From: Candidatus Latescibacterota bacterium
GTDB lineage: Bacteria > Latescibacterota > UBA2968 > GCA-2709665
Reading direction: 5' to 3'
NCBI GenBank assembly: GCA_965203805.1
Contig: OZ241917.1
Coordinates: 1,408,001 to 1,472,000, forward strand
Length of the DNA: 64,000 nucleotides
Positions 43,975 through 52,681 of this stretch are shown piece by piece. The notes beneath the pieces were generated by a model that did no database searches, had not been told where the DNA came from, and worked only from the letters and a program-made list of their open reading frames with translations. A program made the position numbers and the translations under genes. How positions within the stretch are numbered: the stretch's first letter is position 1; every line of letters starts with the position of its first letter.

Positions 43975-44787
43975 TCAGCCGCCCGGCTTCCGTCCGATGT
44001 AGAGGATGTGTCTGGAGGAGGCGACGATGCTCGGTTCCGCGCTGACTTCGAAGAGCAGATCCAGCCAGAGTTCTCTCTGCTTCCCTTCAAGCGCGTTGTA
44101 ACTCTCGTCATCGGCGGAGATAGCCGGCTCCACGCCCGCAATCTTCAGCGTCTGGAATCCTGCGCCCTCGTGCATGGGGGCGACATCCTGGTATCGCACG
44201 AAATATCCGCGAAAGCCCCCTTTAGGGGCGTCGAGCGGGCGATGGCCATACCTGACCACAGACCGCACTTCCTCCCGGTTTTCGATCCAACCGGGGGTCT
44301 TCCTGATCAGGGCCCCCAAAATGCCGTACCTGGATATCATCGCGGAAAAGATGGCGCCGCCCGGTTTCAGGCAGGCGATGGCGCATTGCAGCGCTGCCGA
44401 CCGGTCGGTTTCCAACACGAGATGGTACAGGGGTCCCATCAGAAGAACGGCGTCGAAATTCCCGCAAGGTATGCCGTCCAGCGTGCGCGCATCGCCCACC
44501 CGGACGTCGACCCCGTCGGACAGGCCCAGCGCCTCGGCCCTCGCCCTGCAACGGATCACGAATTCATCGGCGAGGTCCACCGCCGTGATCCGATAGCCGC
44601 GCTTCGCCAGGGCAAACGTGTACGACCCCGTACCGCATCCGATATCGAGAATCCTCCCGCTAGACGGGAGGTACAGATCCAGGTAGCGCCAGGTCAGATC
44701 GGCTTCCAGCTGATGGCGCGTCAGGCGGTCGTCCTCGCCGTCCCAGGCGGCGTTGTAGAACTCGCGTATGTCGCTCACGTCGTCCAC
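43975..44787 (-). CDS. Class I SAM-dependent methyltransferase
   Basis: ILDIGCGTG, FDAVLLMGPLYHL. Confidence 0.88.
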   Translation of the reverse strand: MDDVSDIREFYNAAWDGEDDRLTRHQLEADLTWRYLDLYLPSSGRILDIGCGTGSYTFALAKRGYRITAVDLADEFVIRCRARAEALGLSDGVDVRVGDARTLDGIPCGNFDAVLLMGPLYHLVLETDRSAALQCAIACLKPGGAIFSAMISRYGILGALIRKTPGWIENREEVRSVVRYGHRPLDAPKGGFRGYFVRYQDVAPMHEGAGFQTLKIAGVEPAISADDESYNALEGKQRELWLDLLFEVSAEPSIVASSRHILYIGRKPGG

Positions 44788-44889
44788 GGGAACACCATCG
44801 GGTTTGACTCGTCAACAATCCTGTACCGCCGCGTGCATGAGACTGTGCAGGCCCCCGGCGGCGGCGGACGAATGCAGGCAATCCTTCTC

Positions 44890-45531
44890 CTAACCGTACA
44901 TCGACAGGTCATCCCAACCCGCGAGCAGATGCGGTCGGACCATCGAGGCGTCGGGCCGCCAGTCCTCCCATCCCTCCGAATACGGCCCTCCGGAGCCCTC
45001 GATTTCGGCTACGGCACGGTCTCCCTCTTCCCTCACCGCCCTGCCCTCTTCGGGTGTCATTCGACCCTGGCCGACCGCAAGATCCAGTTCATCGCGGTCC
45101 TTCCACCTCCAGCGCCGGTCCGGTTCAACGACAATGTCCAACTGGTGATCCCTGTAATCAAACCCCAACTCGGTACGCGTCAATTGACTCTGAAGGTTGA
45201 CGTACCATCCCTGAAATACGCCATCGGCCGACCATCGGACCCAGGTTGCGCGACGTTCGCCAAGCCGCACGAGAATCAGAAGCTCCGCCCACTGCCATAC
45301 CGAGTCCACCATTGACCAGGACCGGTTGACCCAATCCCGTGGTTTACCTGGCATGTCGCGCGTGAACTCGGGCTTCTTCGCCGGCGTCCCAAGCGGAAGC
45401 CATAACCGGACTCGTGAAACCGAATCCTCGACTACGGTGACGGGCTTTACGTCGATGATCCGACCGTTCTCGTCAAGATCCCGATAGAGGATCGATTCCC
45501 CGCTGCGGAACCTGGATCGCACGGTTTCCAT
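44890..45531 (-). CDS. DUF402 (FomD-like) protein
   Basis: GWYVNLQ, DHQLDIVV, WKDRDEL. Confidence 0.8.
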   Translation of the reverse strand: METVRSRFRSGESILYRDLDENGRIIDVKPVTVVEDSVSRVRLWLPLGTPAKKPEFTRDMPGKPRDWVNRSWSMVDSVWQWAELLILVRLGERRATWVRWSADGVFQGWYVNLQSQLTRTELGFDYRDHQLDIVVEPDRRWRWKDRDELDLAVGQGRMTPEEGRAVREEGDRAVAEIEGSGGPYSEGWEDWRPDASMVRPHLLAGWDDLSMYG

Positions 45532-45575
45532 GGAACGGGCTCCTCCGTGATCGGAACACACGATATGACGAAACG

Positions 45576-46046
45576 TCAGTCCGCCATTGCCGTTGCTCCG
45601 TTGGCGAAATCTCCACCTTCGAGATTGCCGTTATCGACGAACCACTGCGAATTTGCGTACAGCGCCATCACCGACTTGTGCTTGAGGAACCCCTCTTTTC
45701 TGTAGAAATCCTGCTGGCCGTGTACCCCCGCCAGGATGACTCTTGGAACGGCGAGTTTCCTGAGGATCGAGCTCAAGATGGCTCGCCCGATACCCTGGCG
45801 TTGAAACTCCGGCGCGACGACAAGCTCGCACACGGTCGTAGACGATTCGTCGTCGGATATCGCCCGACCGCCTCCCACGAGCGCCTCGCCGTTGAACGCG
45901 AAACAACAGACCTCGCTATTGGAATACGCGCGGCGGAGCTTTCCGGGATCGAGCTTTCCCAGCGGAACGCGCCTGTAGACTTCGGCCAGGTCCTTCCAAT
46001 TGACGCCTCTTGCATTTTCCCGATAGACAATTTCACTCGTCGACAT
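45576..46046 (-). CDS. GNAT N-acetyltransferase
   Basis: VAPEFQRQGIG, FYRKEGF; real start at ATG 46046 (upstream part of the track ORF is an alternate frame of the next gene). Confidence 0.85.
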   Translation of the reverse strand: MSTSEIVYRENARGVNWKDLAEVYRRVPLGKLDPGKLRRAYSNSEVCCFAFNGEALVGGGRAISDDESSTTVCELVVAPEFQRQGIGRAILSSILRKLAVPRVILAGVHGQQDFYRKEGFLKHKSVMALYANSQWFVDNGNLEGGDFANGATAMAD

Positions 46047-46156
46047 GTTCCCCCCAGTTGATTCGTGGCGTTTTGCATCTGAGACGTTTGACGTTTTGAG
46101 TTCTCGATTTCGAAGCGCGAAGGGTTCGTAGATCAGACTTCCGAATCGACGCCGCC

Positions 46157-46720
46157 TCAACGTACGTCCGGCGCCGCCCCGGCTTGCCGTAATCCACCAC
46201 GATCGGCTTCCTTCTTCAGGGCATTCACGAATTTTTCGACCTCCGTACCCGACCGCAGGATCACGACATTTTTTGTATCCCTGATCCGTTCCAGGTACTC
46301 CAGGATGCCCGGCAGGCGTGTCCTGTTGTAGTTCCAGATCCACTCCAGGAATTCGCGATCCGGCAACTGCTCCCGACACCCGGGATGGATGTCCGGCCGG
46401 CTGCGTCCCAAGTGCCTGATCGCCCTCCTGAATACCCGAAACAGGCAGGTGAACCGGGACAGCGCCAGCAGGATCACCGTATCGCCGGCTTCTATCCGCT
46501 CCTTCATCGTGCCGCCGTAGTTCCCGTCCAGTATCCAGGCCTCGCGACACAAGAGGTCCCGGTGCCGGCGCTGCCATTCCTCCTGCGGCGGTTTCTGCCA
46601 GTCGGGTTTCCAATAGACGGCGTCCAGGTGGACCACCGGCAGGTCCAGCAACGATCCGAGCCTGACCGCCAACGTGGACTTTCCAGCGCCGCCGCAACCG
46701 ATAATGCAGACCCGTCGCAT
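46157..46720 (-). CDS. FlaR-like / adenylate kinase-like P-loop protein
   Basis: IIGCGGAGKST, HLDAVYW, WILDGNY. Confidence 0.85.
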   Translation of the reverse strand: MRRVCIIGCGGAGKSTLAVRLGSLLDLPVVHLDAVYWKPDWQKPPQEEWQRRHRDLLCREAWILDGNYGGTMKERIEAGDTVILLALSRFTCLFRVFRRAIRHLGRSRPDIHPGCREQLPDREFLEWIWNYNRTRLPGILEYLERIRDTKNVVILRSGTEVEKFVNALKKEADRGGLRQAGAAPDVR

Positions 46721-46786
46721 ACCGGAAACGGCGTCATCGGTTCCGGTTTCTGACTGTGTGTGTTCGTTTATCGTCGCGCGCACGCC

Positions 46787-47647
46787 TTATCCCCATTTCA
46801 AGTCTGAAACGACCGGATAGTGGTCGCTGGGGTAGAGCGAACCCCGGTGGCGCCGTACGATCTCGGAATTTTCCACCCTCACCTCAAGGCCGGGGCAGCG
46901 GTAGAGTACCCAGTCCAAACGCCACGAGAGATGATGTTGTCGCAGGTCGTATGCCGGTCCGTCATAGCCGTGATAGGTATTCGACTCCGGACCGTCGCGA
47001 TGTCCGGCGCTCAGAAACGCGTCTTCGAAGCCTTCCCCGAGAAGGAAGCGATGTACCGCGTCGGTGATGGTGCTGCCCGCCGCGGCGGGATCCTCCACCG
47101 CGGGCGTCCACGGGTTACAGTTGAAGTCTGCGGTCAGCAATTGGCGCTCCCCAGGTCGTGCAGCCGACGATATCCATCGGTTCAGCAGCGATGCGCCTTC
47201 GGTCCGCGCCTCCTCGCTGATGTGATCGAGATGGGTGTTGACGTGAAGGAATTCCACGTCAGTCGCCAGGTCGTGAAACCGGACCCACGTCGCGGTCCGA
47301 ACGCAGGCCGACCCCCAGGAACGCGAGTAGCCATCCGGCGTGTCGCTGATCCAGAATCCGCCCCTCGAGCGTGGCTGAAGCCTCTCCCGCCGCCAGTAAA
47401 CCGGGTTGAATAGATGGGGCGGATCATTCGCGTGCGGACCCTGGAAGCTGTCGTATGCCGTGAGCGCTTCGCCAAACGTGGCGAAATTGGGCCACTGAAT
47501 TTCCTGAAAGCCGATAAGATCCGGCGACGAATCATCGATCACGTCGCAAACCAGCGTGGATCGCCCTGAACCGATCCAGGCGTTCCCCGGCTCGTGTTCG
47601 TCGTATCCGCCGGCCAGGTTGAAACTCATGACGCGAAGACTCTGCAT
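46787..47647 (-). CDS. Endonuclease/exonuclease/phosphatase family protein
   Basis: MSFN, GFQE, NTHLDH, ADFN, LDW, PSDHYP. Confidence 0.9.
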   Translation of the reverse strand: MQSLRVMSFNLAGGYDEHEPGNAWIGSGRSTLVCDVIDDSSPDLIGFQEIQWPNFATFGEALTAYDSFQGPHANDPPHLFNPVYWRRERLQPRSRGGFWISDTPDGYSRSWGSACVRTATWVRFHDLATDVEFLHVNTHLDHISEEARTEGASLLNRWISSAARPGERQLLTADFNCNPWTPAVEDPAAAGSTITDAVHRFLLGEGFEDAFLSAGHRDGPESNTYHGYDGPAYDLRQHHLSWRLDWVLYRCPGLEVRVENSEIVRRHRGSLYPSDHYPVVSDLKWG

Positions 47648-47721
47648 CTTTCTGTGTGGTCCTTTCGTTTTGCGTCGTGTATGGACTCGATGTCCGGAAC
47701 CCGCACCCTTCGACGCCTGGA

Positions 47722-48027
47722 TTATCCACCGGGAATGCGCGGACGCACCTCCCGGTCCAACCTGTCCGAGAGCTCGTCCTCGGCGACCTCGAGTTCATAG
47801 TTGGTCTGAATGCTCATCCAGTATCTGGGGGAGGTGTAGAAATATCGTGCGAGCCTCAACGCCGTATCCGCGGTGATGCCGCGTTTGCCCAGGACAATCT
47901 CATTGATGCGGCGCGGGGGCACCCCGATGGAAAGCGCCAGCTGGTTCTGGCTGAGATCCATCGGCTTGAGAAACTGTTCCAGCAATACGATCCCGGGGTG
48001 AACGGGAGCCGTTTCCCCAGTGGGCAT
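47722..48027 (-). CDS. higA: HigA-family addiction module antitoxin (no adjacent toxin)
   Basis: PVHPG, RINEIVLGKRGITADTALRL, YW..Q.NY. Confidence 0.9.
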   Translation of the reverse strand: MPTGETAPVHPGIVLLEQFLKPMDLSQNQLALSIGVPPRRINEIVLGKRGITADTALRLARYFYTSPRYWMSIQTNYELEVAEDELSDRLDREVRPRIPGG

Positions 48028-48102
48028 AGATTCTTCTCCAGGGGCGATCGTCTACGAACACCACGTCACGGGTGGCGCCGGCGGGACGGACGCCAACATG
48101 AT

Positions 48103-48131
48103 ATTATATAACGATTTCCGTTAAATGACAA
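48103..48131 (-). promoter_or_regulatory. sigma70 promoter of higA
   Basis: TTGTCA-17 bp-TATAAT; spacer contains perfect TAACG-N5-CGTTA. Confidence 0.75.
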
Positions 48132-48248
48132 GTGTTAAATGCGTTTCGTTTAATATACAGTATTAAATAGTAGACGTTAAACAGTTTTCATTAAACGGTA
48201 TTTGTTCAACGGTATTCGTTTAATGTATTTCGTTAAACGTATACCGTT
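48110..48248. repeat. Array of ten AAYR-N5-YRTT palindromes at exact 14-bp period
   Basis: Units start at 48110, 48124, 48138, 48152, 48166, 48180, 48194, 48208, 48222, 48236. Confidence 0.9.
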
Positions 48249-48408
48249 ATGCATGACAAAGACACGATTCGCCGCCAGCCAAATCCGGCGGAGTCGTACA
48301 CGGGGACAATCTGCGGCAATGCGGAAGGGCATTCGCAGGCAGGACGGGCGGGTGAGACGGGAGAGGGGGAGAAAACCAGAGAAACAGCCCGTGCGCCTGG
48401 CGGAGCGG

Positions 48409-49098
48409 TCAGCGTTGCGCCAGCCGCAGCATGTTCGAGTCGCCGCGGCGGAACTCGAAGGGCACAGGAACGCATTCGACGCGCGCCGTCCGTCGGAGCG
48501 TCTGCATGGCGGCGTTCAGATGCCTCGACGGTTTACCAGCGAGGTCGAACAACGGAAATACCCGGACCTCTCTCCCCACTCGAAGCAGTTCCCGGAGGAA
48601 TGAAAGGTGCGTTTCAAGGTTGAATTCCGCGGAGAACAGAAACAACATGTGGGAACAGAGGACAAGGTCGAAGGATCCGGCCTCGAAGGGTAATCCGGGG
48701 AGACTCGCGGAGACGTACCGGCCACGCCGGTCTTCCGACCTGAAGTCGCGGAGGAACGTCCTGAGGACGTCACGTCGCAACTGGATAACCGCTTCGGGGC
48801 TACCGTAGTGGTCCCACAGAAACCGTTCACGCGCCCTTCGCGTTCCCGCAAGCATGCGCGTGCCAGTGCGTTCGAAATCGGTTTCCAGGTTCCGGCCTGA
48901 GAACCTGTACACTGGATCGACGGCGACGACGAATCGCCCGGTCCCGCCCCATTCGGCGGCGAATGACGACGTTCCGCCTCCGCAGTCCAGTATCCGCGCG
49001 GATGACGAGACATCGGACAACGCAAAGAACGCCTCGTATTCGGCCGCGCAGCGGCCCCACGCGGGAACGGACCCGCCGAAATCGAATTCTCTGGACAT
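48409..49098 (-). CDS. SAM-dependent methyltransferase-like protein
   Basis: ILDCGGGTSSF, LPFEAGSFDLVLCSH, EVRVFPL. Confidence 0.8.
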   Translation of the reverse strand: MSREFDFGGSVPAWGRCAAEYEAFFALSDVSSSARILDCGGGTSSFAAEWGGTGRFVVAVDPVYRFSGRNLETDFERTGTRMLAGTRRARERFLWDHYGSPEAVIQLRRDVLRTFLRDFRSEDRRGRYVSASLPGLPFEAGSFDLVLCSHMLFLFSAEFNLETHLSFLRELLRVGREVRVFPLFDLAGKPSRHLNAAMQTLRRTARVECVPVPFEFRRGDSNMLRLAQR

Positions 49099-49111
49099 GT
49101 GACGGAGAGCC

Positions 49112-50092
49112 CTAGCGCAACCACGTCCACCCGGCCCGGGTTGCCGGATGGACGACTTCCTCTCTCAAATGCAGGTTTTTCACATCGGGATCGACAACAC
49201 GCCGTCGAACGGCCAGCGCAATTCGATACAATCGGTTGTCCGGGTAAGGCGTTCGATGGCTATCAGTCCGGGCGGCGGGTGAAAAGCCAAGTTTCTCAAG
49301 TTCATCCGTGTAGACCGCCTCCACGCGTTCCACCAGTTCCCTCCTGCCACGCACCCTTGCGTAACCCTCCCGGAGCAAGCTGCAAACCTCCACCGGGGCG
49401 CCTTCAAGCTTCTCGAACTCTTTCCACAACCACTTGTGATACGGCGCATACCGCCTGTTGATCAGAAAGCCGACCTTTGTCGCGTATTCGGCGAATTTCG
49501 TCCAGTAGTTGAACGCTGTTACGTGGTCTCCCCGAGCTTCTGCCCTGAAGAGATGTTTCCGCCCCCATTCCCAGCACCAGGAAAGACATGCCGCCAATCG
49601 ATGCCTCCATACATCCTCCGGATACCTGGAAAACGCTCTAAATCGGGCACTCACAATGCCCAGTTCGTCATGATAAAGCCTGTTCGGAGTGAGTTCGAAC
49701 AGGTACGGTTCCGGGATACGCAGCCAATCTCTGAGTGACGGCGGCGGCTCAGGGAATCCTACTGTATTCTCCGCATAGCTGCCGACTTCCCAGACGCTGC
49801 AGGTCCTTTCAGGCGGATTCTCCCAGTGGAATCCATCATACTCCGCAAGCAGCGTATCGAGAATCTCCTGCAAACGGGAGCCGTATTTCTGGTAATCCCC
49901 TTGCGCCAACCACACGGAGAATTCCGGACCCCAGCCATGATCGCGAGAGATATCGTCGTCGTTCTTGTGTGCCTGCGAACCCGCCGATCCGACGCCGGCG
50001 GCCAGGCTCCGCACACACTGTGGCAATCGCCGCTCAATCTCGGGGAGTCCGACCCCGCGAAAGAACCTCTCAGACAGTTCGAATCCTCTCAC
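49112..50092 (-). CDS. DUF4037 domain protein (nucleotidyltransferase-like)
   Basis: DDISRDHGWGP, YPEDVW, YAPYHKW. Confidence 0.75.
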   Translation of the reverse strand: MRGFELSERFFRGVGLPEIERRLPQCVRSLAAGVGSAGSQAHKNDDDISRDHGWGPEFSVWLAQGDYQKYGSRLQEILDTLLAEYDGFHWENPPERTCSVWEVGSYAENTVGFPEPPPSLRDWLRIPEPYLFELTPNRLYHDELGIVSARFRAFSRYPEDVWRHRLAACLSWCWEWGRKHLFRAEARGDHVTAFNYWTKFAEYATKVGFLINRRYAPYHKWLWKEFEKLEGAPVEVCSLLREGYARVRGRRELVERVEAVYTDELEKLGFSPAARTDSHRTPYPDNRLYRIALAVRRRVVDPDVKNLHLREEVVHPATRAGWTWLR

Positions 50093-50110
50093 AAATCCTC
50101 CTCGTGGAAG

Positions 50111-50387
50111 CCTCTCCCCCCGGCCCCTCCCCCCACGGGTACGACGTTAGACGCAAGACGGGAGATACTGTGAGTGCCTGAAAAGCGGGGAGACGCAAGA
50201 CGTGAGATTATATGATTGCCTGTTCGGTTTCATCTCTTGCCGGAGGCATTGAGCAGGAGCAAATTGGGCAAGGACGTCATCTACCGTCTTGCGTCTCACG
50301 TCTCACCGCCTTCATCTACCGTCTACCGTGCTTTCAGGTTTTCACTCTTCACTCTTCACTCTTCATTCTTGCCTTTCTCGTCTCACC
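50111..50387. repeat. Intergenic patch of inverted heptamer repeats
   Basis: GACGTTA-GACGCAA-GACGGGA and GAGACGCAAGACGTGAGA on the left; TCTACCG-TCTTGCG-TCTCACG-TCTCACC and (TTCACTC)3 on the right. Confidence 0.75.
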
Positions 50388-51357
50388 GCCCTTCACGACC
50401 GTTCCGGACGACAGCTTCGATAAACTCGCCCTTGCCGGTCTGGTAGGACTGCCTGTCCTTTGGAAACCGACGAGCCAGGTCCTGCTTCAATCTCATGTAG
50501 TTGTCCGCAAGGCTGCGGTCCGATCTCAGGCGGTCCCGGAACAGGACAATCTCTTTCCAATCCGCGCTTGTCTCTTCGAACACGTGGATGTGATGGGAGC
50601 GAGGTGCGCCTTTCCGGAAGAAGTGCCTTCGAGGGATGCCGTTTTCTCCCCTGTATTCGTACCCGATCCCGCCGAGGGGCTGTATGCATACCCTGGCGCG
50701 TTCAAAATCCCTGACGGCGACCGCGATGTCCAGCACCGGCTTGGCGGCCATCCCCTGTATGGACGTGCTGCCCACGTGCTGGATATCCTCCACGAAATCG
50801 CCGATCGTTTCTTCGATATTCTCTCTTTCCAACTCGAACAGGACGCTCCATTCTTCCCGATACGGGGACACCGACACCTCTCCGCGATTCAAACCGAGCA
50901 AAGGTCCCCTGCTGAACAGTTCCGGCAGGCGGTCCGGCGTCAGGAAGGTCGCCAGTTCAGGATCCACCGTCGAGATGGATTCGTGAGAAATCCAGGAAAA
51001 TGCGAAGACAACGCCGGATTCCGGACCCACCGTTCCGACGTGTTCCCAACTGTCCGGTAGATGAGGATCCGCTTTGAAAAGAAAGTCCGTCCGTTCCACG
51101 TCCGATTGGATATATGGTTTGAAGTAGCCTGTCTTCCCGATCCTGCGGATGAACTGCAGGTCCTCGATTCCCGATTCCTCGCGGGTTTCTCGATGGGCGG
51201 CCTGAAGCGGCGTTTCACCGGCCTCGACGTTTCCTCCCGGCAGGCGATAGTATTCGTAGCCGATGGATTTGAGTTCGAGGACGAGCAATTCGCATGTCCC
51301 ATCCGCGTCGTGCCTGATAATCAGCGCGAACGCCTTATGGACGAGCGGGTTCTTCAT
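50383..51357 (-). CDS. NUDIX hydrolase-GrpB (UPF0157) fusion
   Basis: Nudix box GGNVEAGETPLQAAHRETREESG; GrpB HVGSTS..AKPVLDI, FRDRL, Y..LK, Y..GK. Confidence 0.85.
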   Translation of the reverse strand: MKNPLVHKAFALIIRHDADGTCELLVLELKSIGYEYYRLPGGNVEAGETPLQAAHRETREESGIEDLQFIRRIGKTGYFKPYIQSDVERTDFLFKADPHLPDSWEHVGTVGPESGVVFAFSWISHESISTVDPELATFLTPDRLPELFSRGPLLGLNRGEVSVSPYREEWSVLFELERENIEETIGDFVEDIQHVGSTSIQGMAAKPVLDIAVAVRDFERARVCIQPLGGIGYEYRGENGIPRRHFFRKGAPRSHHIHVFEETSADWKEIVLFRDRLRSDRSLADNYMRLKQDLARRFPKDRQSYQTGKGEFIEAVVRNGREGR

Positions 51358-51421
51358 TGTACCGGAACAGGCGCCGTGGGAAATGTGGGAGCGTATCTCA
51401 TTGATTCCATGACCGTTACGA

Positions 51422-51901
51422 CTATATCCCCATTCGTTTAAGGATGACCGTCAGTGTCTCCTCGGGCGTCTGGCTTCCGTTGTCGATCACGGTTCCGATT
51501 CCCGGTTCGATATGCGAAGACCGATATTGTTCGCGTATGCGGTTTCGTTCCCGCTGAGACAGTTGCCGGCCGCGGTTGGAAATGGCCACCTGGAGGGGCG
51601 GACGGAGCGTAAACGCGTGTATGGAAACGCGGGCGTCTTGCGCTTCACGTTCGAAGGCCGCGTAGTCACGATGTGAAATCGGCCACGTCACCACAACGTT
51701 GAAACCGCGCGAGAGCCAGTTTCGCGTCAGCATAGCCGTGTCGACGACACAGTATGGACACACTTCCGCCAGACTCAGACAGTCGGCGAAGTGACGCAGT
51801 TCGTCCACCTCGATGTGGACGGTCCCGGGCAGGTTCTCCGCAAGCAGACGACCGACGGTCGACTTGCCGGAATTGATCGAACCGTTGATATAAATCAGCA
51901 T
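51422..51901 (-). CDS. Small P-loop kinase (AAA_33-like)
   Basis: NGSINSGKST, EVDELR. Confidence 0.75.
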   Translation of the reverse strand: MLIYINGSINSGKSTVGRLLAENLPGTVHIEVDELRHFADCLSLAEVCPYCVVDTAMLTRNWLSRGFNVVVTWPISHRDYAAFEREAQDARVSIHAFTLRPPLQVAISNRGRQLSQRERNRIREQYRSSHIEPGIGTVIDNGSQTPEETLTVILKRMGI

Positions 51902-51913
51902 GGGGCGTGACCG

Positions 51914-52681
51914 TCAGTCGATGAGGCCCCAGAGACGCTGCCGGTCCGCCGACCAGCCCGCCCAATCGGGGTGCACGTGTTTGATCGCCTCCAGGTCGCG
52001 CTTGCGTCCGCCCGCCGGGAAATAATTCCACCCCATCGCACGCCTGGGTCCCGCGGCGGTCTTCAACCCTGTCGCGTGCCAGCAGGAGGGCGTCCACACC
52101 AGGGTCCACCGGGGGTCGAGGATGACCTCCACTTCGTGCGGGTGGCGGGCGTACAGTTGCCCGGGCAAATCGTCGTGCGTTCCGGTAGCCAGTTCGAGTT
52201 GCATCAGTTCGGCCTTCACCTCCTCCGGTGGGCGGTGCTGGCTGCCGGGCAGCACCCGGAGCGGCCCGTTGCTGGCGTCGTGTCGGTCCAGGGCGGTACG
52301 GAAGGAGACCTGGCGGACTTCAGGGCTGCCGTCCGCGTGCCAGGGGACCTGGCGCTGGCCCGTCCTCTCCGCCTTCGAGGCGTCGCCGATACCGCAGGCG
52401 CCCACGTGCACCGATTCCACGCCCAGAATCCGCCGCGCCGCTTCCACGATCTCCGGCCGCTCCACCATCTGCAGCACCGGTTCACCGATCATCAGAAACA
52501 GGCAGGCCAGGCGGTTGCATCCCGCGGGGAACTCACTGCGTTCCCACTCCGGCTCCACTTCCTGCTGCCGGTTGTCAACAAGGCGGACGCCTTGCTCCCC
52601 CAGGGGATTCGGGATGAAGAAGAACCCGTTGCGTTCGAAGTGCGCCAACTGATCGTCGCTGATCTTCAGTTGATTCTCCAT
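51914..52681 (-). CDS. PhyH family dioxygenase
   Basis: PWHAD, NGPLRVLPGSQ, CWHAT. Confidence 0.85.
   Translation of the reverse strand: MENQLKISDDQLAHFERNGFFFIPNPLGEQGVRLVDNRQQEVEPEWERSEFPAGCNRLACLFLMIGEPVLQMVERPEIVEAARRILGVESVHVGACGIGDASKAERTGQRQVPWHADGSPEVRQVSFRTALDRHDASNGPLRVLPGSQHRPPEEVKAELMQLELATGTHDDLPGQLYARHPHEVEVILDPRWTLVWTPSCWHATGLKTAAGPRRAMGWNYFPAGGRKRDLEAIKHVHPDWAGWSADRQRLWGLID

Follow-up and report, generated by a model that had tools for sequence, protein, structure and literature searches.

We found that higA, an antitoxin-type gene in the 64-kb window analysed here (the whole stretch of 64,000 nucleotides), is preceded by ten 13-bp palindromic sites of the form AAYR-N5-YRTT, laid end to end at positions 48110..48248. 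Comparison with related genomes argues that this array is probably a greatly expanded operator for HigA itself, kept by selection after the toxin gene had been lost. As a rule, a type II antitoxin represses its own promoter at one palindrome or a few. Autorepression of HigA through the palindromes at its own promoter is predicted here, and the sequence evidence is consistent with it. Multi-site toxin-antitoxin operators and orphan antitoxins are both already known; a limited literature search on HigA operators, orphan antitoxins, and antitoxin operator repeats found no multi-unit phased HigA array. A sequence-only reading of this DNA had proposed an orphan HigA and the sites before it as a candidate protein-DNA filament system, and its interpretation as a whole is partly supported by the present analysis.

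The array was established by pattern search, by comparison within the genus, and from independent assemblies, and no strand is assigned to it. Its units start at 48110, 48124 and so on to 48236, every 14 bp and with no exception among the ten. Counted from higA, unit 1 occupies 48110-48122, unit 2 occupies 48124-48136, and unit 10 occupies 48236-48248. The units abut, with a single spacer base, mostly T or A, after each 13-mer. The G+C content of 48100-48239 is 0.279, compared with approximately 0.6 in both flanks and 59% in the genome, and the AT-rich block of ten abutting 13-mers in exact 14-bp phase that was first described from the sequence is confirmed. A pattern search of the 64-kb window returned 17 matches, ten of which are the array; shuffles of the window gave a mean of 10.1 (sd 3.1), and 17 matches were reached by one shuffle in 100. 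TRF called a repeat of period 14 (72% matches) over 48175-48239 alone, the four units that most resemble one another, and the array is therefore too diverged to be a clean or fresh slippage repeat.

Within the genome, a single contig of 5,865,457 bp, the pattern occurs as 784 single matches. The sole run of at least two sites in 14-bp phase, and likewise the sole cluster of at least three, is the array at higA. When a PWM built from 124 units of other species was run against the own genome, the matches were single and scattered through AT-rich stretches, and no further locus had paired or phased sites; no wider regulon can be claimed. The concern that the array might be an assembly artefact is removed by three independent metagenome studies (X3, X4, and X13; marine, sponge, and coral), whose contigs span the array without indels; this independent bridging indicates that the array is real. 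Three SNPs were present within the array among the bridging contigs (48158, 48170, and 48198), and all three fall in N5 centres.

The gene itself (47722..48027, minus strand) encodes a 101-aa XRE/HTH_3 antitoxin-type DNA-binding protein, an assignment that draws on TIGR02607, HTH_3, and solved relatives. The product scores 98.2 bits against the TIGR02607 HigA equivalog (cut-off 47.7, E 1.8e-28) and matches Pfam HTH_3 at 4e-10. A family match above cut-off and an XRE-type HTH domain thus place it among HigA proteins, and the HigB (RelE-superfamily) toxin gene that would lie directly upstream in the same operon is missing. Judged from its sequence, the gene is HigA by descent and no longer half of a toxin-antitoxin pair. 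The solved relatives found by phmmer are Coxiella burnetii VapI (3TRB, 4.6e-20), P. aeruginosa HigA (7CSV, 1.5e-19; 6JPI and 6LB3, 1.7e-19), and P. putida GraA (6F8S, 6F8H, and 6FIX, approximately 4e-16 and up to 5e-16). When the recognition helix is aligned with the contact residues of P. aeruginosa HigA (PaHigA), N42 and R49 are retained, and E stands in place of D43; the replacement of T40 by R and of R46 by L counts against our main reading. The gene is under purifying selection, with a median dN/dS of 0.124 (range 0.026-0.25; 105 pairs, codons 10-101), and the median synonymous difference in higA across the genus is 35.7%.

On the minus strand, a -35-like hexamer TTGTCA (48126..48131) lies within unit 2, the centre of which is invariant in 11 genomes, and a -10-like hexamer TATAAT (48103..48108) follows immediately after unit 1. 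The resulting TTGTCA-17-TATAAT arrangement agrees with 11 of 12 consensus positions and is a candidate promoter by consensus match. The 17-nt spacer is essentially unit 1 and the -35 sits in unit 2. As such, the earlier placement of the higA-proximal unit in the promoter spacer holds at the level of consensus, with units 1 and 2 overlapping both the spacer and the -35. A hexamer of the TATAAT, TAAAAT, or TATATT type is kept at the -10 place in orthologous loci. From the end of the -10 to the higA ATG at 48027 there are 75 bp, a leader (48028..48102, minus strand) with a GGAG ribosome-binding site and, by local alignment, a remnant of the lost higB 3' end; with only 75 nt available there is no room for a toxin gene. 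Assembled contigs from an RNA library (metatranscriptome X16) cover higA and the leader (47806-48075), as well as portions of the genes on either side (several of the downstream one, one of the upstream one). None of these contigs reaches the array, a gap that carries no weight as evidence; the cover of higA is compatible with higA expression but no proof of it, as DNA carry-over is possible.

A protein search over 41 related genomes, with a genus set of 15 genomes including our own, recovered a higA orthologue in all 14 other genus genomes at 82-96% identity. With the conserved -35 unit as the common anchor, 14 of the 15 genomes show an array before their higA orthologue, in strict 14-bp register with no phase indel, and the array accompanies no other gene. 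Ten genomes carry 10 units, G004 carries 11, G008 and G013 carry 8, and G011 carries 7. A strict AAYR-N5-YRTT fit was observed for 102 of the 134 genus units, and the remainder fit 6-7 of the 8 arm positions; 13-mers flanking the arrays score at most 6/8, compared with 6-8 for the units. Pairwise comparison of the 11 genus genomes with at least 10 units gave differences of 12.8% in the arms (564/4400), 18.2% at the spacer base (100/550), and 42.9% in the N5 centres (1181/2750). Within the 13-mer, 90% of units have A or T at position 6 and 98% at position 7. Units 1 and 2 scarcely vary in their centres, which is to be expected if these serve as promoter spacer and -35. The one genus genome lacking the array is G001, in which other DNA replaces both array and promoter and higA is intact, with a dS of 0.16 to the window's gene; G012, a close relative of G001, has ten units. 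The array is therefore dispensable at least in the short term, which counts against our main reading.

The loss of the toxin can be followed in the same genomes. In G008, G011, and G013 higB is a pseudogene, with approximately 310 nt containing stops and frame changes between the array promoter and higA, and in the other genus genomes only end remnants of higB are found. A tblastn search with related intact HigB found nothing at the window's higA locus. The window's leader aligns with the 3' end of the higB pseudogene in G008 at a score of 48 (best of 200 shuffles 31) and in G013 at 41 (best shuffle 36). Aligned directly to the intact higB of L023, the leader scores 18 against a shuffle mean of 17.4, which is not significant, and the link between leader and higB thus runs through the intermediate pseudogenes. 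At the loci with the nearest HigA outside the genus, L023-L026 (78-81% identical), an intact 93-aa higB precedes higA. Pseudogenes in three species together with an intact higB outside the genus establish that the toxin was lost in this lineage, and the proposal of an orphan HigA left by toxin loss is thereby borne out.

The same motif is found at canonical promoters with an intact toxin gene. The higB promoter of L023-L026 carries two abutting units at 14 bp and a third that overlaps by 7 bp, over the -10, and this third unit forms a GraA-like overlapping pair. L032, L034, and L037 have two units, 16 bp apart, at the promoter of the higB-higA operon, and L033, L035, and L038 have a single unit there. 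The unit is constant and its number and spacing are variable among relatives, which is the behaviour expected of a dimer site. In G017, which belongs to another genus, higB was lost independently and only two sites were kept; toxin loss alone, therefore, does not expand the operator.

Beyond the genus, we scanned for at least four exact units with A or T spacers and used the reversed pattern as a control. In the order, 9 of 53 genomes have such an array, and in the phylum 9 of 168 do. All of these are in this genus and at higA, with none in the 153 phylum genomes outside the genus and none anywhere with the reversed pattern. Five more array-bearing genus genomes fail this strict scan solely because units matching 6-7 of the 8 arm positions interrupt their runs. 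A wider scan of contigs for four units was rejected, as almost all of the 80 matches read were 7-bp microsatellites, e.g. (AACATTG)n; because such repeats meet a four-unit pattern trivially, the A or T spacer was required in the order and phylum scans. We also collected 79 metagenomic loci with a HigA 57-75% identical, of which 13 with less than 420 nt upstream were dropped. Exact sites within 600 nt upstream of the 66 loci kept numbered none in 29, one in 25, two in 12, and more than two in none. In 53 of the 66, a complete or incomplete HigB-like frame terminates immediately before higA. Canonical higB-higA operons (L023-L026, L032-L038, and these 53 loci) thus share with the array system a homologous HigA (57-81%) and the same motif over the promoter, but they have one to three sites, never more, and an intact higB stands between promoter and higA.

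Structural work on related antitoxins indicates how a single unit may be read. As described in the report on GraTA (PMC6393540), the 33-bp graTA operator contains two 13-mers fitting AAYR-N5-YRTT that are offset by 7 bp, and two GraA dimers bind on opposite faces of the DNA, each with one HTH on the central TAAC half-site and the other approximately 11 bp away. The HTH motifs are 35 Å apart, and binding is obligately cooperative even though the dimers do not touch. For PaHigA, the published account (PMC6987408) gives a GraA-like arrangement with TTAAC/GTTAA half-sites. This geometry suggests that one 13-mer is the footprint of one dimer in this HigA subfamily. TAAC-type half-sites approximately 11 bp apart are present in all ten units of the window, and the match to the GraA dimer site, together with the motif at canonical promoters, upholds the claim of a HigA-type operator. 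A pair overlapping by 7 bp around a central TAACGTTA-type palindrome occurs in L023-L026 and is lacking in the window, where the 7-bp-offset position over the -10 matches just 6 of 8 arm positions.

GraA (6FIX) and PaHigA (6JPI, 6LB3) therefore have the family, the TAAC/GTTA half-sites, and the dimer-site geometry in common with the array system; in both, the antitoxin alone represses and two dimers cooperate through the DNA. In those two systems a pair of sites overlaps by 7 bp around one central palindrome, the outer contacts lack sequence specificity, and a toxin gene accompanies the antitoxin; the array differs in its ten end-to-end sites at 14-bp intervals, in the conservation of both arms, and in the loss of the toxin gene. 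With abutting sites and two conserved arms, the binding mode may differ from that of GraA and PaHigA. Another long example is the F-plasmid ccdAB operator, which one study (PMC5389731) describes as unusually long, 113 bp with eight antitoxin sites, and models with raised avidity and steepness. However, CcdA is a ribbon-helix-helix protein of low specificity whose dimers are bridged into a chain by CcdB, and the array involves an HTH fold, specific palindromes, and no bridging toxin. Several to approximately ten phased short sites are also coated cooperatively at the four-operator hipBA promoter, in parC/ParR, and at omega-protein heptads. The proteins involved are small dimeric DNA-binders encoded adjacently, and the centromere arrays work with a partition NTPase. 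These arrays differ from the HigA array in protein fold or site architecture, and no partition NTPase was found among the 11 ORFs scanned around the HigA locus.

We propose that each (T)AAYR-N5-YRTT(A) 13-mer would dock one HigA dimer, with its two HTH motifs on half-sites approximately one helical turn apart. The array would have grown by duplication of a 14-bp unit in the genus ancestor, starting from a 1-3-site operator like those of canonical higB-higA promoters, and higB decay would have accompanied its origin in the genus, in either order, leaving a pseudogene in three species and a deletion in others. HigA bound to units 1 and 2 would sit over the -35 and the spacer of the one good promoter at the locus and turn off its own transcription. 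The eight upstream units, which extend approximately 110 bp further upstream, are probably kept by selection, and the likeliest cause is that stable binding needs neighbouring dimers, as the DNA-mediated cooperativity of GraA and PaHigA leads us to infer. A long phased array of this kind would produce multivalent, very tight, and steep (switch-like) autorepression as its physiological output. Its occupancy would also cover the AT-rich upstream stretch and read-through from the upstream same-strand gene, with no terminator-like site detected between that gene and higA, and it is possible that bound dimers act as a roadblock to this read-through. At 10.5 bp per turn, each 14-bp step corresponds to approximately 120 degrees and 48 Å per dimer, and full occupancy would form a helical coat around the DNA. 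Since GraA dimers 7 bp apart do not touch, dimers spaced by 14 bp should fit sterically.

The sequence-only reading had gone further and suggested an ultrasensitive switch or an antitoxin sponge, both of which are possible. In the first, the toxin-less HigA would work as a nucleoprotein switch in which ten dimers load all-or-none as a helical coat, three dimers for every four DNA turns, with cooperativity passed through the DNA and no protein contacts; the response would be bistable or ultrasensitive, perhaps with an antitoxin reserve against incoming HigB. We consider this strong form a tentative proposal with a low chance of being correct. If it were true, the locus would be a natural, genus-wide case of long-range DNA-mediated allostery in a repressor array; if HigA binds the proximal sites only, it would be an ordinary operator with a curious conserved repeat. 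The published puzzle of GraA and PaHigA, two non-touching dimers with obligate cooperativity, is extended here to ten such sites strung in phase. The genus thereby offers a natural system for the scaling of DNA-mediated cooperativity with site number, with built-in variants of 7, 8, 10, and 11 units as well as a species that lacks the array. It may also serve as a dated example of a toxin-antitoxin remnant that was retained and rewired instead of decaying, and synthetic biology could draw from it a small, orthogonal repressor and operator whose response is possibly switch-like.

The sponge is the less probable of these two ideas, and we think it unlikely. It holds that the array is a DNA-borne antitoxin reservoir with an anti-addiction role, storing up to ten HigA dimers and setting a threshold; an incoming or paralogous HigB would titrate HigA, strip the array, and derepress higA, so that antitoxin would be made in a rapid burst. 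An anti-addiction role is a common proposal for orphan antitoxins (PMC7354431), and the GraTA toxin derepresses its operon by taking the antitoxin off the DNA (PMC6393540). The purifying selection on higA in the absence of a cis toxin fits this idea, as does the presence in the genome of other HigB-like genes (C1:1634482-1634923 and C1:5508202-5508333) and of six weaker HigA paralogues, none with an array. However, the paralogues are at most 49% identical, the HigB-like genes are partial tblastn matches with 36-60% identity to canonical HigB of the clade, and ten dimers per chromosome is a small store. The sponge is, moreover, an elaboration of the auto-operator model and brings in no other binding partner.

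It is also conceivable, although we disfavour it as very improbable, that replication slippage left the extra units behind as neutral sequence and that only one or two promoter-proximal sites work. Unit duplication has occurred, given that units 7-9 are alike enough for the 14-bp call by TRF, and the number of units varies from 7 to 11 among species, with G001 living without an array. The pattern of divergence opposes this account. In units 3-10 the arms differ by 5.5-22.7% between species and the centres by 47-56%, at or above the synonymous level of 35.7%, which argues that the centres drift approximately neutrally while the arms and the phase are held. No indel is found over the 98-154 bp of array in 14 species, and the flanking intergenic DNA is unalignable. 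Equivalent units in two species differ at 2.15 of 5 centre positions, compared with 3.27 of 5 for different units within one species; the units are therefore orthologous by position and old, and have not been homogenised. The strain-level SNPs, three of three in centres, follow the same pattern. With arms conserved, centres free, and phase kept without indels in 14 species, the 13-mers show the behaviour of sites bound by a protein, unlike that of slippage repeats, which is what had been claimed for them from a single sequence.

The auto-operator reading must also be set against the genes around it. The locus is chromosomal and syntenic in the genus, with DUF4037, methyltransferase, array, higA, EEP-family gene, and kinase-like gene on one strand. 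It is possible to imagine that HigA has re-paired with the downstream EEP gene (endonuclease/exonuclease/phosphatase family, 46787-47647) as an antitoxin-first module, in which case the array would be the operator of that operon. The EEP gene lies on the strand of higA after a 74-bp gap with no terminator-like site, and it stands at full length beside higA in 9 of the 15 genus genomes. Against such a pairing, only fragments of it are found in L004, L012, and L010, and it was not detected downstream of higA in G008, G011, and G013, three genomes in which higA and the array persist. An EEP gene fragmented or undetected in six genomes is not an obligatory partner of higA, and the adjacency is explained by shared ancestry. 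To our knowledge, there is no EEP-type toxin family. We disfavour this reading as well, and its chances appear slight.

Short sites in phased arrays are characteristic of plasmid centromeres and of iteron origins, but the suggestion that the array belongs to a mobile or partition system, as a centromere-like or iteron origin-like element recognised by some other protein, is the least credible of all and is disfavoured. The locus lies on the chromosome, with methyltransferase, array, and higA in syntenic order across the genus, its sites are the promoter operator of the clade with no second genomic copy, PADLOC returned nothing relevant, and the adjacent NTPase or initiator and the mobile context of plasmid-type elements are lacking. 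The 11 neighbouring ORFs (43975-52681) encode methyltransferases, DUF402, GNAT, kinase-like AAA, EEP, DUF4037, NUDIX-GrpB, and PhyH proteins, with no ParA/ParM or other partition gene, replication initiator, integrase, or other mobile-element gene among them, and the centromere-like role raised in the sequence-only reading is not sustained.

Two further candidates at the locus were discarded. A plus-strand ORF at 48249-48623 starts just past the array, and the DNA there is unconserved even in the closest species. An RNA element was dropped because the sole Rfam match to the array is a sub-threshold miRNA model (20.5 bits compared with 58) and the RNA fold z-score of -2.0 is as expected for a string of small palindromes. 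Finally, pattern matching and genus comparison point to a candidate eleventh site at 48001..48013 (no strand assigned), inside codons 5-9 of higA and out of the 14-bp phase of the array. From the genome-wide frequency, the chance of one AAYR-N5-YRTT match in a 306-nt gene is approximately 0.04. The site is missing in G013 and in 7 outgroup genes and is kept in 14 of the 15 genus orthologues, including that of the array-less G001; synonymous positions nearby are generally conserved too, and the pattern is only suggestive of a functional site.

One species of the genus, represented by G001, has lost the whole array together with the promoter from the approximately 450 nt upstream of higA. At this locus (L003), homology to the other loci restarts within the leader, approximately 55 nt ahead of the higA ATG, and the DNA that replaces the array carries the GCTGA-rich repeat of the genus. 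Because higA remains intact in G001 despite the loss of both array and promoter, this genome offers a natural array deletion. The repeat itself is short and rich in GCTGAC/GGCTGA, with the form AGCTGACGGCTGACC...GATAGCT; it recurs in several genomes of the genus, in non-conserved intergenic DNA upstream of the arrays, and has been located at L003, L005, L008, L010, and L012. Possibly it represents a small dispersed element characteristic of this genus.

G003 has, besides its main ten-unit array, a second operator of two units with a TATAAT-like hexamer behind it (L004:1100-1127), set apart from the array by approximately 170 bp on the upstream side. The DNA that follows this operator is similar to the stretch ahead of the arrays at two other loci, L001 and L012, a likeness which hints that the promoter region was duplicated as a segment.

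A further match to AAYR-N5-YRTT lies within the higA coding region, at 48001-48013 (codons 5-9). It is present in 14 of the 15 orthologues in the genus, with nearly invariant synonymous positions, and it arose jointly with an N-terminal change from the canonical KLAPI-type sequence to ETVPV or ETAPV. The spacing between this match and unit 1, the higA-proximal unit of the array, differs among species, ranging from 109 to 122 bp and reaching 336 bp where the higB pseudogene persists. The match could serve as an auxiliary downstream operator, or it could be a coincidence of the conserved 5' end of the coding region.

A continuous run of small enzyme genes occupies the minus strand from 43975 to 52681, encoding two or three SAM methyltransferases, a DUF402 protein, a GNAT acetyltransferase, two kinase-like AAA proteins, an EEP-family hydrolase, a DUF4037 protein, a NUDIX-GrpB fusion, and a PhyH dioxygenase. 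The run looks like a set of small-molecule-modifying or detoxifying genes. The segment 46700-49200 is covered by contigs of the runs X3, X4, and X13, which come from three studies that sequenced marine, sponge, and coral metagenomes and which match it at 90 or more of every 100 letters, mostly 95-99. At 49098, the contigs of X3, X13, and the metatranscriptome X16 pass into different DNA, and in those strains synteny therefore ends before the methyltransferase gene, on its upstream side.

Elsewhere in the genome that contains the window, a HigB-like gene (G000:C1:1634482-1634923) adjoins the HigA paralogue L016. It aligns to a canonical HigB as two pieces, residues 1-51 and 52-93, separated by approximately 160 nt, and possibly carries an interruption or a frameshift.

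In a Cytophagales MAG (L105, 2001-2097), a 14-bp unit that fits AAYR-N5-YRTT is likewise repeated in tandem without variation, with seven copies reaching a contig end; among the matches listed in the global scan for four phased units, this locus is one of the few that are not 7-bp microsatellites.
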